From the sequence record PQ471515.1: a DNA stretch of 64,000 bases; one strand, written 5' to 3'. This document shows positions 28,355 to 61,847 of the stretch, in pieces; position 1 is the stretch's first letter, and every line of letters starts with the position of its first letter. The translations under genes were made by a program, and so were the position numbers. This DNA is from Escherichia phage Turkey3. The notes under the pieces were generated by a model. The model was not told where the DNA came from and ran no database searches. It was given only the letters and a program-made list of their open reading frames with translations.

Positions 28355-28606
28355 ATGAAAGTACTGACAGAATTAGAAATGTATCATAGATTTAACAAGT
28401 ACTATCATTTACTTAAACCTATACAGAGGATTAAGTGTCCCTTTGTAGTGAAACAGGTATTAATTTATGAGCATAAGTTATTTGTATCATTAGGTACGAA
28501 TGAACAAGAGTATTATTTGAAGTTGTACTTAATTACATTAATAGATTTAATTCACTATAAAACCACACAATCTAAACAAGCTAATAAAGAGAAATATGAA
28601 AACTAA
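28355..28606 (+). CDS. family A small protein
   Basis: ATG right after previous stop; LGTNEQEYYL. Confidence 0.55.
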   Translation: MKVLTELEMYHRFNKYYHLLKPIQRIKCPFVVKQVLIYEHKLFVSLGTNEQEYYLKLYLITLIDLIHYKTTQSKQANKEKYEN

Positions 28607-28934
28607 TATACAACTCAAGGTTTATAAATCATTTGCAAGTACATACATCAAATGCTATACATGTAACTATGTAATGGACTACAAAGGTAAGCCATTTACA
28701 CTTACTTACGATAATACAAGAGGTTTTTATATATCTTTTGCTGATTACAAATATAACATATACGAACACATTGACATTGAAGATTTAAGTACTTTATCAC
28801 AAGAAGAATACTTTCAAGAATCATTAGTATGGGATTTAGAGTTCCCTATGTCATTAGTACATAAAATGATAGTACTAATAAAAGAAACTAAGCCTGTACC
28901 TAATGGTTATGAAGATCACATTATTGAGTATTAA
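28596..28934 (+). CDS. family B protein (EEYFQES module)
   Basis: DLSTLSQEEYFQESLVWDLEFPM; paralog of next gene. Confidence 0.6.
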   Translation: MKTNIQLKVYKSFASTYIKCYTCNYVMDYKGKPFTLTYDNTRGFYISFADYKYNIYEHIDIEDLSTLSQEEYFQESLVWDLEFPMSLVHKMIVLIKETKPVPNGYEDHIIEY

Positions 28935-28948
28935 TATATAAGGTAACT

Positions 28949-29290
28949 ATGAAAACTAATATACAACTCAACGTATACAGTTCAGAAGAACATACATATA
29001 TCAAATGCAGTCTATGTAAAGATGTAATGGACTACAAAGGTAAGCCATTCACAATTACTTATGATTCTGATGTTAATGATTTATATATATCATTTCTTAA
29101 TTACGAAAATAAAATATACAAGCACGTTGATATTAAAGATTTAAGTACTTTATCACCAGAGGAATACTTTCAGGAATCGTTAGTATGGGATTTGGAGTTT
29201 CCTATGCCATTAGTACATAAAATGGTAGTCCAAATGAAAGAAGCTAAACCGGAGTTTAACGGTTATGAAGAACACACAATTGAGTATTAA
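28949..29290 (+). CDS. family B protein
   Basis: DLSTLSPEEYFQESLVWDLEFPM; RBS AAGG. Confidence 0.6.
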   Translation: MKTNIQLNVYSSEEHTYIKCSLCKDVMDYKGKPFTITYDSDVNDLYISFLNYENKIYKHVDIKDLSTLSPEEYFQESLVWDLEFPMPLVHKMVVQMKEAKPEFNGYEEHTIEY

Positions 29291-29521
29291 ATGAAAAGAT
29301 TATCATACGAAGATTACACCAATCTTATCAGGACTTTACAACCACAAATACAACAAATAAATTCTCTTCCTATACCCCAAGAAGAACGTGCAGTACTGAA
29401 AGATGAGTTAATTTTAAAATGCACAGTAGGAACAAACTATCAAGCTGATAGTGTTCGATATTTAATTTGGGGTTTAATGAGTATAATAGAGAACAAAGCA
29501 GTTGACAGTACTCTATTGTAG
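29291..29521 (+). CDS. family A small protein
   Basis: VGTNYQADSV; starts right after previous stop. Confidence 0.6.
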   Translation: MKRLSYEDYTNLIRTLQPQIQQINSLPIPQEERAVLKDELILKCTVGTNYQADSVRYLIWGLMSIIENKAVDSTLL

Positions 29522-29561
29522 TGCTATAGTACATGAACGTTAATCATTAGGGTAGAAAATT

Positions 29562-29807
29562 ATGTTGAATTTTTTAAATTTCCTTATCGTCTTGTGTATT
29601 GTTCTTGGGATTGCACCATTTGTATTGTATTTCATGGATTCAGATGAAATGCAGAAGATGAATTGTACAAGGACAGGACAGAGTAGAGTAGAGACGATTC
29701 TTATGCCTGTTACGGTTATTGTTAACAACATGCCCATTACCAACATGGTCCCTACCCTAACGACAACGTACCAGTACTCTTGTACAGACGGAGAGAGGTG
29801 GAGATAA
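29562..29807 (+). CDS. small membrane protein (N-terminal TM helix)
   Basis: MLNFLNFLIVLCIVLGIAPFVLYF; RBS GGGTAG; + strand consistent with array. Confidence 0.5.
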   Translation: MLNFLNFLIVLCIVLGIAPFVLYFMDSDEMQKMNCTRTGQSRVETILMPVTVIVNNMPITNMVPTLTTTYQYSCTDGERWR

Positions 29808-30130
29808 TGCGTAAGTTCAATTGTATTGTACGTAAGAATTCTTGTTACATTGTAGTAGCTGATTTTAATACGGGTTCTGGGTTGAAGATATTTGAGTACA
29901 GAAAATGCAATAATTCTTTTCATTGGAAATTAGGTGCAAGAAAAACAAATACAATTTCAGTACCGAATTTATGTTCTATCTCTGAAGAAGAAGAGTTTCA
30001 GTACTTGTTAGTACATGATGATTCTTTAGGATTTACATTTGTAGATATGAAGGAAGTACAAAAGCAGATGATTGCACATTGTCATCTTCCAAAGAATTTT
30101 GTTCAACGCGTATGTGAATTCTACATATAA
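29807..30130 (+). CDS. family B-like protein
   Basis: SISEEEEFQYLLVHDD; RBS GGTGGAG. Confidence 0.55.
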   Translation: MRKFNCIVRKNSCYIVVADFNTGSGLKIFEYRKCNNSFHWKLGARKTNTISVPNLCSISEEEEFQYLLVHDDSLGFTFVDMKEVQKQMIAHCHLPKNFVQRVCEFYI

Positions 30131-30139
30131 GAGAAGAAT

Positions 30140-30451
30140 ATGAAATTTAATATAGCAAAAACATCGAGTATATGTATTTTTGGTTATGCAGAAGAGTTAG
30201 GTGATATTGACATTCTTTTGTACAAAAAGGATGGTGTTATGCATTTCAAGTACCAGGATGAAGAGGCAGACAATTATCTTTTACCTAATTTAGTACAAAT
30301 GCAGGAAGAGGAATTATTCCAGTACAGCTTAATATACGACATTGATATTTGCACGATGCCAGTATTAATTAATATACAAAAAGTTATGCTCGATATGTAT
30401 GATAAGCTAATACAAGGTATGTCAGGGAGGATCATTGAAATCGATATATAA
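30140..30451 (+). CDS. family B protein
   Basis: MQEEELFQYSLIYDID. Confidence 0.55.
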   Translation: MKFNIAKTSSICIFGYAEELGDIDILLYKKDGVMHFKYQDEEADNYLLPNLVQMQEEELFQYSLIYDIDICTMPVLINIQKVMLDMYDKLIQGMSGRIIEIDI

Positions 30452-30647
30452 GAATTTACCTAATGAATATATGTTGAAGTACAAAGAGTTTATTAAAGAT
30501 GTATATGTAGATCCTTTCAATATCAAATTTGCAGAGTTCGAAGTATCATTTTATCTAGGGACAATAGTACAGGACCAATACGTTGATAATCTAATAAGGT
30601 GTTTGAAAAAGGAGATACAATGCAGACCCAAAGGTATAAAAAGGTAG
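30435..30647 (+). CDS. family A small protein (variant LGTIVQDQYV)
   Basis: Overlapping start. Confidence 0.5.
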   Translation: MKSIYKNLPNEYMLKYKEFIKDVYVDPFNIKFAEFEVSFYLGTIVQDQYVDNLIRCLKKEIQCRPKGIKR

Positions 30648-60122: not shown

Positions 60123-60132
60123 TAAAATATTG

Positions 60133-60160
60133 TGGACATAACAATTCCTTGCGATATAAT
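60133..60160 (+). promoter_or_regulatory. sigma70-like promoter (TGGACA-16-TATAAT)
   Basis: TGGACA 60133, TATAAT 60155. Confidence 0.5.
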
Positions 60161-60193
60161 GTTCACATCTTTTTTTGATAAATGGAGATATAG

Positions 60194-60580
60194 ATGAATA
60201 CAAGTTCTGTTCTAAAAGCGATTGGTGGTGTACTTCTGATTGAAGTCCAGGGTGAACCTAAGCTATGTTGCTTAGAAGACATGAAGAATACTAAACACTT
60301 CAGTACTGGACAGATTTTCAATGCTATTCGTGTTCTTAACGACAAATCAGTACAAGACTATGGAAAGGTATGGCCTTCGTATGTAAATCCTGAAGGTGAA
60401 ATTAGTGCTGATTGGAAAACAATTGAAGCAGTACGTGTGAGTTGTGAGAGCGATTGGGATTTCATCGTTGAAGTATGTGACCAACTGCAAGAAGATGTGC
60501 CAGAGATTGTAGAACGTAAAGAAGTTCTTGCACAACTTGATAAATTCCGTCACGGTACTCTACCGTATGACGTAATCTAA
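60194..60580 (+). CDS. hypothetical protein
   Basis: RBS GGAGATA. Confidence 0.6.
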   Translation: MNTSSVLKAIGGVLLIEVQGEPKLCCLEDMKNTKHFSTGQIFNAIRVLNDKSVQDYGKVWPSYVNPEGEISADWKTIEAVRVSCESDWDFIVEVCDQLQEDVPEIVERKEVLAQLDKFRHGTLPYDVI

Positions 60581-60631
60581 TCTGATTTATTAAAAACTAT
60601 CTAACTAACATTATATAAAAAGGAATTTAAA

Positions 60632-60937
60632 ATGGAAGACAACGGAATGAAATTTGATATGTTTGAAGGTGTACCAGAGTTCGATTTCAATAAACTTGAA
60701 AATGGTGAAGAATCAGAACTAGTAAGTGTTACACTAAAATCAGATACCAAAAAGAAATATTCCCCATCAGTTCGTTCACGTTCTCAAGAAGAATATGAAA
60801 CCTTCATTGAGAGTATTCATTACGAAACGTTCCATCATGCAGATGGTACTCCGTATGAAGTTCGTGTTACAGTACTGAAGCCTGAAGTAAATCAAATGGA
60901 AAATCTACGTCCTGTTTACTGCTGGGCAAGCCACTAA
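60632..60937 (+). CDS. hypothetical protein
   Basis: RBS AAGGAA; terminator follows. Confidence 0.6.
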   Translation: MEDNGMKFDMFEGVPEFDFNKLENGEESELVSVTLKSDTKKKYSPSVRSRSQEEYETFIESIHYETFHHADGTPYEVRVTVLKPEVNQMENLRPVYCWASH

Positions 60938-60945
60938 TAAACCAA

Positions 60946-60978
60946 AGGACGGGATATAATATCTCGTCCTTTTTTTTG
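60946..60978 (+). terminator. rho-independent terminator
   Basis: AGGACGGGATATAATATCTCGTCCT + T8. Confidence 0.7.
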
Positions 60979-60989
60979 TCTGGAGATAT

Positions 60990-61847
60990 ATGAAACTTTA
61001 TCTAATTGTTGACTACAGTAAGGGTTATTATGACTACACAGAAGATTCTGAAGGGTATTGCTCGTCTACTAATGTAAATGTACGCAGCAGTAGTACACAT
61101 GAGCATGAATCTATTACAAATCTAAAAGATTTTATTGCATACCGAGCATTTGAAAAGAATTTCTGTCGTAGTAGATATTCGAAGTTTGAGTACCCGTTGA
61201 TTGATGTTCCTGATGAATTGATGTTCCAGTTAATGCTCACTGGAGTACAAGATTATGATTACATCGCGTACAATCACATTACTAAGAAAATTTATATCGG
61301 TACGTCAACACATGACATTTCTATGTATGCATCATGCCCTGATGATCGAATGAAGGATAGAAATTCACGAAATTCATACAGTAGTGGTTCAGTTGGTTTA
61401 AATGATGCATTAAATAAAAATTTATTCTTTGAGTACGAGTTTGATAATCATCGAGGGAAAAAAGACCGAGAAGATTATTGTACTGAAATTGATAGTTCAA
61501 ATGGATATGAAGAAGTGAAAGAAGCGATAATGCCATATATCCTTGACAAGTACTACAAAGATTTTCAGTACTGTAGTAATTTTCTAATCCGAAATTCTAT
61601 CATAATCGGTCGTCAAAGTACTGCATTCTCTAAGTACTACAATGATTCCCCTGTTGCTGAAAATGAAAACTGTAATGTTCTCTCAATCCCACGTGAAGAT
61701 ATGGTATTCATGTTCACATCTTTCATTGAAGATGATGAGTTGTATGTAAAAAACAAGCACAGGTTCATGCCAAGTAAGATTGAGGTTATGAGAAGCTTAA
61801 GTGCAGATATCTTAACGAATTTCACTGAAAAAACAGAATACAACTGA
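60990..61847 (+). CDS. hypothetical protein (285 aa; family B-like DELMFQLMLTG)
   Basis: RBS GGAGATA. Confidence 0.55.
   Translation: MKLYLIVDYSKGYYDYTEDSEGYCSSTNVNVRSSSTHEHESITNLKDFIAYRAFEKNFCRSRYSKFEYPLIDVPDELMFQLMLTGVQDYDYIAYNHITKKIYIGTSTHDISMYASCPDDRMKDRNSRNSYSSGSVGLNDALNKNLFFEYEFDNHRGKKDREDYCTEIDSSNGYEEVKEAIMPYILDKYYKDFQYCSNFLIRNSIIIGRQSTAFSKYYNDSPVAENENCNVLSIPREDMVFMFTSFIEDDELYVKNKHRFMPSKIEVMRSLSADILTNFTEKTEYN

Follow-up and report, generated by a model that had tools for sequence, protein, structure and literature searches.

What is a bacteriophage doing with more than 40 tandem genes that share one short peptide block? Escherichia phage Turkey3 (sequence record PQ471515.1) raises this question in a 64,000-nucleotide stretch (the window), where an array of paralogous genes, here called family B, runs along the + strand from 28,596 to 58,281. 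By megablast the window belongs to genus Asteriusvirus (the 121Q/PBECO4-related jumbo myoviruses of E. coli), with identity over 40–48 kb of 97.5% to WPEC3, 97.4% to fEgEco12 and 83–86% to PBECO4/121Q, and all genes under the megablast match carry the label "hypothetical protein". Our best explanation, with a probability of roughly 0.55, is that family B is an ancient, still evolving tandem family whose products, by the timing and function that we infer, form an early host-takeover or anti-defence arsenal of cytoplasmic, non-virion proteins, and that its conserved FQ block is not a processing site.

A tandem family sharing an FQ motif

Family B is defined by the motif [ST]-E-E-x-[YFL]-F-Q-x-S-[TL]-[ILV]. 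F and Q are invariant in 42/42 window members and 142/142 external members, and S stands at +2 of Q in 35/42 and 131/142, respectively. The Q lies about 50 amino acids (aa) from the C terminus (39–80), while its own position ranges from 60 to 166 among the 42 members. An original prediction, made from the letters alone, had described just such a constant C-terminal part behind an N-terminal part of variable length, and both tail subtypes that it quoted (DKKYLCT... and LVIxWYFK) occur among the members. The conserved block that it reported is real: [FYW]Q.S[LTIV] is found 44 times in the three + frames versus 9 times in the three − frames, EE.[FYW][FYW]Q 15 times on + versus 0 on −, and the DNA pattern GARGAR-N6-TTYCAR-N3-WSN-N5-T has 17 + strand matches versus 0.00 expected from shuffles. 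Because the motif codons vary (TTC/TTT, CAG/CAA, and Ser as AGY and TCN, mostly AGY), conservation acts on the peptide and not on the DNA.

BLAST alone divides the genes into subfamilies of 16, 12, 3, 2 and 2; an iterated hidden Markov model (HMM) built within the window converges on 42 + strand open reading frames (ORFs) between 28,596 and 58,281. A second profile, built only from 117 external sequences that share <50% identity with every window member, finds 33 of these 42 as well as 43869–44405, and among 167 + strand ORFs it has no match outside 28.6–57 kb. When the profiles of the long and the short forms are compared, they match with a probability of 94% (E 1e-7).

Beyond the 42 firm members there are three with indirect support and about seven candidates, so that the family probably numbers ~45–52 in all over ~30 kb, and the predicted figure of about 50 was a fair one. 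Its right limit of 61,847 has to be drawn back to 58,281, since six ORFs at 58.3–61.8 kb show no membership detectable by HMM, external profile or hhalign. The statement that nearly every + strand ORF belongs to the family was likewise somewhat generous. Of the 71 + ORFs in the interval that reach 45 aa, 42 are firm members, and these make up 65% of the sequence there; five copies of a second family (family A, below), a conserved single-copy gene at 56035–56448 and several small ORFs are interspersed. Coverage reaches 85% when 12 candidate degenerate members are added, which score ≤34% probability in single-sequence hhalign against the family profile. By these sequence comparisons they stay candidates, save three backed by other routes: one by the external profile, and 49383–49925 and 51078–51641, which we consider degenerate members because they are the best BLAST matches of HMM-detected members in the uncultured relative L009 (a 41-kb Logan contig, ERR4503900, of 28% GC). 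The second of these L009 members, ORF 2727–3332, is detected by the HMM yet has only a degenerate YQLS motif.

The members are listed below with their motifs; HMM denotes the iterated within-window model and ext the external-only profile, and all lie on the + strand.

28596..28934, +, member, short form of 112 aa, SQEEYFQESLVWD; HMM E 2.5e-17; recent duplicate of 28949
28949..29290, +, member of 113 aa, SPEEYFQESLVWD; HMM; 121Q orthologue 76%
29780..30130, +, member, probable start 29807, SEEEEFQYLLVHD; HMM, family alignment
30140..30451, +, member of 103 aa, QEEELFQYSLIYD; HMM, ext
31918..32478, +, member of 186 aa, NEAEVFQTSLIYN; HMM, ext
32555..33061, +, member of 168 aa, CSAELFQKSLLYS, phrog_19795; HMM, PHROG, ext
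33051..33362, +, member of 103 aa, SEEEFFQMQLVVD, phrog_33987; HMM, PHROG
33359..33709, +, member of 116 aa, SEEEFFQMQCVLD; HMM, ext
33681..34250, +, member of 189 aa, SEEAFFQESLFTH; HMM, ext
34557..35054, +, member of 165 aa, TEEWWFQQNLVHD; HMM, ext
35128..35703, +, member, longest ORF from 35092, probable start 35128 (3′ of promoter), SAEDYFQYSTVYS; HMM, ext
36521..37039, +, member, longest ORF from 36398, DEAAYFQQSLIDA; HMM; start from phrog_28680 match 42–213 and promoter 36446
37319..37945, +, member of 208 aa, SEEMLFQYKTVHT; HMM, ext
38666..39079, +, member, short DKKY(I/L)C subtype, probable start 38702, DDAALFQESLVFD; HMM, family alignment
39237..39608, +, member of 123 aa, SEEEFFQESTVWN; HMM, ext
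39608..39964, +, member of 118 aa, DAAELFQESLVFD, modelled short form, phrog_15629; HMM, PHROG, AlphaFold2
39961..40326, +, member of 121 aa, DDVELFQASLVFD; HMM, family alignment
40256..40672, +, member, probable start 40328, GEAEIFQESLIFD, best 121Q match 45% (no close counterpart); HMM
40856..41326, +, member of 156 aa, SEEFYFQQNTIYE; HMM, ext
41323..41763, +, member of 146 aa, TEEYYFQQSLIFN; HMM, ext
41766..42254, +, member of 162 aa, SEEYYFQNSTVYN, modelled long form, phrog_9317; HMM, PHROG, AlphaFold2
42232..42675, +, member of 147 aa, SEEYYFQNSTLYD; HMM, ext
42672..42986, +, member of 104 aa, HETFLFQESLIWD; HMM
42986..43429, +, member of 147 aa, SEDAYFQYSTIYP; HMM, ext
43426..43872, +, member of 148 aa, TEEGYFQGSTVYN; HMM, ext
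44763..45317, +, member, longest ORF from 44721, TEENIFQNSLMWD; HMM; start from 184-aa database homologue
45916..46275, +, member of 119 aa, QEDELFQESLVWD; HMM
46265..46603, +, member of 112 aa, DTGELFQESLVLD; HMM
46554..47144, +, member of 196 aa as longest ORF, NEENYFQQSLLNT; HMM, ext
47204..47686, +, member of 160 aa, SEEEFFQYSTLYN; HMM, ext
47683..48165, +, member of 160 aa, TEEMYFQGSCIHD, phrog_12674; HMM, PHROG, ext
48158..48520, +, member of 120 aa, SEEELFQESTVNT; HMM, ext
48504..48917, +, member of 137 aa, TPDELFQYSLVLP; HMM, ext
48905..49399, +, member of 164 aa, SEESYFQNSLIYT; HMM, ext
49922..50479, +, member of 185 aa, LESVMFQHMLIHK; HMM, ext
50472..50990, +, member, longest ORF from 50406, TDEVQFQLSTICD; HMM; start from phrog_35776 match 23–194
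52212..52790, +, member of 192 aa, VDEELFQMSTVIP; HMM, ext
53708..54289, +, member of 193 aa, GEEQYFQLSTIHE; HMM, PHROG, ext
54301..54852, +, member of 183 aa, SEEQHFQLSTLHN; HMM, ext
55441..56025, +, member of 194 aa, MEERLFQESCVSS; HMM, PHROG
56448..56966, +, member of 172 aa, TEELIFQYSLILK; HMM, protein database search, ext
57781..58281, +, last firm member, 166 aa, DAGELFQLSTVND; HMM; 40% identical to L009 positional orthologue
43869..44405, +, probable divergent member of 178 aa, EEQCFQLSCTD; ext E 3.6e-4
49383..49925, +, probable degenerate member, FQ lost; best BLAST match (E 5e-6) of HMM-detected motif-bearing L009 member
51078..51641, +, probable degenerate member, FQ lost; best BLAST match (E 4e-5) of L009 ORF 2727–3332
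35700..36308, +, candidate, SFFFQLSLVQD; motif score 9; hhalign 6%
51641..52225, +, candidate, EAYIFQRSVLD; ext E 1.9e-3
53215..53721, +, candidate, TEEVEFQFNTV; hhalign 34% on motif region
37036..37380, +, short candidate, EAARFQYETAF; joins family alignment; hhalign weak

Members measure about 105–210 aa and are soluble and mostly acidic, with a median isoelectric point (pI) of 4.82 and a net charge of −8 (some are basic, with pI up to 9.0), compared with a pI of 8.6 for family A and 7.8 for ORFs of the terminal repeat. We found no transmembrane segments in family B proteins and no domain fusions; all members stand alone. Part of the block, Q-x-S-L-[VI]-[YFW], resembles the bacterial sliding-clamp-binding motif, a likeness to which we give no weight (half of the members have T for L, and the region is structured).

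The array consists of selected genes. For 36 of them a reciprocal-best orthologue exists in 121Q, where the order is unchanged, and the pooled ratio of nonsynonymous to synonymous divergence (dN/dS) over these pairs is 0.28 for the N-terminal part and 0.22 for the motif plus C-terminal part, compared with 0.20 for other window genes. A Shine–Dalgarno-like core precedes 23 of 42 starts (background 9–10%), no frameshifted copies were seen in the array, and the genes overlap on one strand as predicted, at 80 of 104 junctions and at 27 by ATGA. Purifying selection, Shine–Dalgarno enrichment and overlapping junctions together indicate selected coding genes in tightly coupled operons. With a dN/dS of 0.28 the N-terminal part is also not hypervariable in the sense of positive selection, and "hypervariable N-termini", if taken to mean diversifying selection, is not supported. 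One could still regard the copies as functionless leftovers of genome expansion by duplication, given that the array takes up ~8% of the 380-kb genome and that several ORFs have degenerate motifs, but the constraint on the 36 orthologue pairs, the intact frames, the Shine–Dalgarno-like sequences and a gene order conserved between E. coli and Klebsiella phages make this exceedingly improbable.

Family B is old and diverges quickly between host genera. Its paralogues are 25–50% identical and not recent amplifications, and outside the invariant residues family proteins are 15–25% identical. Between E. coli and Klebsiella phages, which preserve gene order, members are ≤38% identical or alike only at the motif, and flanking single-copy genes are 50–68% identical. 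The window also contains lineage-specific duplicates (28596/28949, 33051/33359 and 31918/32555) and an extra copy at 40256.

Predicted fold and the conserved helix

We ran AlphaFold2 on alignments of paralogues and orthologues for one long and one short form. The long form (41766–42254) is modelled as one compact domain (predicted local distance difference test, pLDDT, 86.3; predicted template modelling score, pTM, 0.82) with an N-terminal helix, seven strands, a helix at 109–115 that holds EEYYFQN, a long helix, a strand at 141–144 and a C-terminal helix. The short form (39608–39964; pLDDT 88.2, pTM 0.84) has five strands, a helix at 65–74 that holds AELFQESLV, a long helix and a final strand. 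In both models the motif helix lies in the best-ordered part, where 10-residue blocks have a mean pLDDT of 96–97. The alpha/beta fold, confidently predicted, thus runs from a beta-sheet of variable size through a short F-Q helix and a long helix and returns to the sheet with its last strand; long forms have an extra helix at each end, the N-terminal one being common to them. Because the strand that follows the motif can pair only with the sheet before it, the models describe a single domain and not an anchor with a separate effector, as had been proposed in the phrase "conserved anchor plus diversified domain". No fold match was found in the PDB, and neither form has a sequence-profile match there; fold matches in BFVD reach weakly to Serratia phage BF, Yersinia phage fHe-Yen9-04, Cronobacter phage GAP32 and Erwinia phages.

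These models bear on the suggestion that E-x-x-[YF]-F-Q / x is a 3C/NIa-type protease site that frees the variable N-terminal part from the C-terminal tail. Some members do carry an exact E-x-x-Y-x-Q-(G/S), for example TEEGYFQGS at 43426–43872, and the Q is invariant. However, 3C/NIa sites have G, S or A at P1′, and here G is confined to 2/42 window members and 6/142 external ones, P1′ being otherwise mostly E/Y/Q/N/L/K/M/H; P3 is Y/F in only about half and often L/I/V/H, though E at P5/P6 is common. Such sites also lie in exposed and extended linkers that join separable modules, whereas both models put this motif in a helix (block-mean pLDDT above 90), and a cut there would break a single domain apart. 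Among the window ORFs scanned, which cover part of the window (itself about one sixth of the genome), no protease family turned up. The phAPEC6 and CBB papers, as consulted, report no 3C-like protease; they mention a prohead protease, a ClpP-like protein and an M23 peptidase domain (PMC7247149, PMC5259590). The protease-site idea fails on three counts, the residues at P1′, the predicted conformation and the integrity of the domain: cleavage at the motif is barely credible, and FQ does not mark a site of proteolytic processing.

The strict conservation of the helix has another possible explanation, in which the invariant EExxFQxS helix would dock all paralogues on one common host or phage machine (e.g., a protease, chaperone, polymerase or clamp) while the variable sheet would recruit or block different targets, making family B a set of interchangeable adaptors and not of independent inhibitors. 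F and Q are invariant in 184/184 members, S and E-E nearly so, in proteins that are otherwise so divergent; the distance from motif to C terminus is constant, and every member stands alone. Against this, the models place the motif in a helix within the most confidently ordered region of the fold, where a core element would be expected to lie; two positional homologues apparently without FQ have nonetheless been retained, and our analysis yielded no candidate partner. We regard adaptors of this kind as an unlikely alternative. A sharper version, equally doubtful, would make the proteins modular adaptors on a previously unseen fold that bring, through the diversified sheet, a different client per copy to one host machine in the first minutes of infection and act on various defence or housekeeping proteins of the host, a phage counterpart of the poxvirus ankyrin/F-box-like or BTB-kelch adaptor families.

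Position, promoters and proposed role of the array

The physical genome ends of fEgEco12 have been determined, and its direct terminal repeat measures 20,993 bp (PMC13070987). Aligned to the fEgEco12 record, the left terminus falls at window position 1395 and the repeat ends at ~22,364. Family A follows (22,460–28,606), and family B begins at 28,596, ~6 kb past the repeat end. Within the array, sigma-70-type matches of at least 11/12 number 10 on + and 0 on −. Promoters with an extended −10 occupy the rare gaps between genes (29502, 35073, 36446, 47141 and 51022), two of them just past terminator-like hairpins, and several are kept at the same gaps in 121Q:

29502..29530, +, sigma-70-like promoter TTGACA-17-TATAGT with TG, in intergenic gap; consensus scan; conserved in 121Q
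35042..35101, +, terminator-like hairpin 35042–35063, then promoter TTGACA-17-TACAAT with TG at 35073–35101; promoter conserved in 121Q
36446..36474, +, promoter TTAACA-17-TATAAT with TG; consensus scan
47141..47170, +, perfect consensus promoter TTGACA-18-TATAAT with TG, in gap 47144–47204; identical element in 121Q gap
50989..51050, +, bidirectional terminator-like hairpin 50989–51008, then promoter TTTACA-17-TATAAT with TG at 51022–51050; consensus scan

Host-takeover or pre-early modules within or next to the long terminal repeats of virulent phages are known from the terminal redundancy of SPO1, the pre-early region of T5 and the left end of T7 with Ocr. These known takeover modules are mostly unrelated small genes, whereas here ~45–50 genes form one protein family, and we found no sequence or fold likeness of family B to characterized takeover proteins. 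The array nonetheless has both marks of an early module, a location at the genome end beside the terminal repeat and host-type promoters. In the related phage CBB, RpoD-like promoters are concentrated on short hypothetical ORFs next to the terminal repeat, for which an early host-takeover function is suspected in the report on that phage (PMC5259590), and PA5oct, reliant on the RNA polymerase of its host, transcribes the genes of its terminal repeat strongly in early infection (PMC7318152). Early modules of this kind share with family B a place at or near the terminal repeat, a single direction of transcription, strong host-type promoters, many small proteins of unknown function and absence from virions. 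By analogy, family B would be expressed early.

Virion presence can be judged from published data on the orthologous phage phAPEC6. Mass spectrometry of its virions identified 62 proteins, none between gp347 and gp549 (PMC7247149, Table 1), and the family B array corresponds to gp404c–gp466c. The idea of capsid-packaged proteins that enter the cell with the DNA, the conserved block being a targeting or processing signal, fails on this proteome. Its appeal lies in a likeness to the T4 internal-protein loci, which also encode diversified small proteins with one short conserved block, and in the inner body that phAPEC6 has (PMC7247149). Not only are gp404c–gp466c missing from the virion list, but the block is internal or C-terminal, within what is predicted to be a folded domain, and the promoters are of the sigma-70 early type and not late, so that injection is very improbable. 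The original proposal of an effector arsenal accordingly loses its injected proteins and keeps host interaction, as the inference that fits best.

A different possibility is that family B serves the phage's own programme, as regulators, assembly or replication accessories, means of competitor exclusion, or antidotes to toxic early proteins such as those of basic family A. The acidic B array (pI 4.8) adjoins basic A (pI 8.6) and has five A copies inside it, and positional orthology is kept across genera. But the counts of A (32) and B (~45–50) are unpaired and most A copies stand in a separate block; ~45 divergent paralogues are rarely needed for housekeeping, and divergence between host genera is much faster than that of neighbouring genes. 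We hold this alternative to be improbable.

A host-interaction arsenal accords best with the location beside the terminal repeat, promoters of sigma-70 type, acidic products and a rapid divergence from one host genus to another. In such an arsenal, host RNA polymerase would transcribe the array one way, early in infection, from near-consensus sigma-70 promoters, and a few long, translationally coupled operons would cover it. The proteins would remain cytoplasmic and unpackaged. The conserved helix would be the structural or functional core of the fold, and through variable sheet surfaces the paralogues would differ in the host proteins that they bind, whether defence or housekeeping factors. 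The set would have arisen by duplication and divergence and been kept copy by copy.

Several points weigh against this explanation. The average dN/dS, well below 1, indicates no ongoing arms race within the genus. The invariant E-E, Q and S hint at a shared ligand or partner and not at a purely structural role, and a different target per copy would, by itself, leave them unexplained; burial of F and Q is deduced only from model confidence and secondary structure. The promoter matches are consensus scans, some of them inside ORFs, the literature searched holds no Asteriusvirus transcriptome, and small proteins present in few copies are detected with limited sensitivity by mass spectrometry of virions.

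Relatives, comparable systems and neighbouring loci

The family had been called unrecognized, and databases bear this out: there are no matches in Pfam (49 members) or NCBIfam (26 members), and the matching PHROGs (9317, 12674, 15629, 13866, 19795, 28680, 35776, 34636, 30625 and 33987) are all of "unknown function". Full-length PHROG matches (E 1e-33 to 1e-116) were obtained for 9 of 10 members tested, and the tenth (28596–28931) has weak partial matches only (E 3.6e-7). PHROGs thus hold family B as many separate families, and the superfamily link through the FQ motif is unrecorded there. An exhaustive profile search of 1.84 billion representatives gave 162 clusters at E ≤ 0.001, of proteins of 110–213 aa matched mostly over nearly all their length, save a few short fragments, and the distant ones retain the motif; a 773-aa protein with 14 repeats was discarded as a spurious repeat match. 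A word-indexed profile search reached only Asteriusvirus, and the exhaustive search was needed for Klebsiella phage and uncultured relatives.

Named members come from the Klebsiella phages RaK2, K64-1, Muenster and KP13-7 and from E. coli phages, the rest from metagenomic contigs. The 121Q array has 40 members. In Muenster a terminal repeat at 1–20,030 (PhageTerm-predicted) is followed by at least 26 + strand members. L009 has at least 11, upstream of the same conserved single-copy gene that is embedded in the Turkey3 array, so that, with its 28% GC, the clade extends beyond sequenced isolates. In IMG/VR the strict DNA pattern matches only 121Q, RaK2 and one 174-kb uncultivated virus genome (UViG). 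Literature on Asteriusvirus, PBECO4/121Q and RaK2 and reviews of jumbo phages contain only generic remarks on paralogues and no description of the family, and the comparative jumbo-phage study of Iyer et al. (2021) does not mention it (PMC7824862). As far as the literature searched shows, neither family B nor its fold or size appears to have been described.

The kind of locus is already known: a lineage-specific multigene expansion in the early or terminal region of a large virus. African swine fever virus (ASFV) multigene families MGF360/505 and the poxvirus ankyrin/PRANC and Bcl-2-like families resemble family B as tandem paralogues near genome ends with strain-variable content, in which otherwise divergent proteins keep one short conserved element and a part in host range or immune evasion is presumed. 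This is analogy only, not homology; family B is bacteriophage-borne and its paralogues are old. A "genomic accordion" concept has been put forward for large phages (PMC13359090), and Bacillus phage G has a lineage-specific expansion of ~35 zinc-ribbon proteins (Iyer et al. 2021, PMC7824862), like family B a very large single-family expansion in a jumbo phage, but with another fold and in another clade. The acidic anti-restriction DNA mimics Ocr and ArdA share early position, small size and net negative charge with family B; we found no fold or sequence likeness to them, and the acidity of family B is moderate, some members being basic. The "polyimmunity" arrays of polymorphic-toxin immunity proteins were rejected as a comparison, there being no SUKH or other known Imm fold or profile.

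RaK2/121Q-group jumbo phages have hundreds of genes of unknown function, and their genome papers give this region as "hypothetical proteins". About 8% of the genome now resolves into one protein family with a predicted fold that has no solved relative, in an ordered array found from E. coli to Klebsiella phages, with purifying selection on each copy, and an anonymous block becomes a defined, testable object. It is among the largest single-family expansions seen in a phage and offers ~45 natural variants of one scaffold as a panel for host targets, anti-defence or host shut-off. It also provides a bacterial-virus case for the theme of multigene families at genome ends in poxviruses and ASFV. 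These phages are being put forward for therapy, where an arsenal that possibly determines host range would matter.

The neighbouring loci show several further features. By collinearity with fEgEco12, window 1395–22364 is the long direct terminal repeat, and window 1–1394 stands 5′ of the position that matches the fEgEco12 physical left terminus, so the source record is either permuted or has its terminal repeat collapsed. Ten promoters in the repeat have the perfect form TTGACA-16/17-TATAAT, and a second spaced motif, TTGCAA-16-TATAAT, occurs there at least 14 times; all of these stand on the + strand, at roughly one per small gene. A repeated cassette (11679–11714, 15337–15372, 18615–18651 and 20879–20914) consists of AAAGGGATTGACTCCGGTCAGTCCCTTT then GCTATTATAT; it forms a 12–13 bp terminator-like hairpin with a −35-like TTGACT in the stem, 17 nt past which comes an extended −10 (TG-TATTAT). 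From its sequence it may be a combined terminator and promoter.

Family A begins directly after the repeat and comprises 32 tandem paralogues of 64–97 aa with the motif LGTN(Y/H)Q(E/Q); it is basic (median pI 8.6), its dN/dS versus 121Q is 0.39, and one copy scanned matched phrog_4148 (unknown function). Its five copies within the B array lie at 29291–29521, 30435–30647, 30599–30892, 44383–44601 and 44579–44773. The single-copy gene embedded in the array (56035–56448) encodes 137 aa, is conserved across the clade and has a product 57% identical to Muenster gp123, whose record is annotated "putative ADP-ribosyl transferase, HHpred 4GV2_A 99.8%"; the Turkey3 product itself has no Pfam match and no PDB sequence match. 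Two other non-family ORFs in the array, 31587–31916 and 29562–29807, have one a signal-peptide-like N terminus (MNKIILALTFILSMFANTVQA) and the other a transmembrane-like one. Three successive small ORFs without the motif (55, 67 and 71 aa) break the array at 37939–38504, directly followed by its largest intergenic gap (161 bp, 38505–38665). To the right of the array, 58324–63614 holds better-conserved single-copy genes, 50–68% identical to Muenster, except for two 285-aa genes at 28–32%, one of which (60990–61847) is homologous to a Muenster "putative secreted protein". At 63090–63614 lies a Dam-type N6-adenine methyltransferase (Pfam PF05869, E 5e-32).

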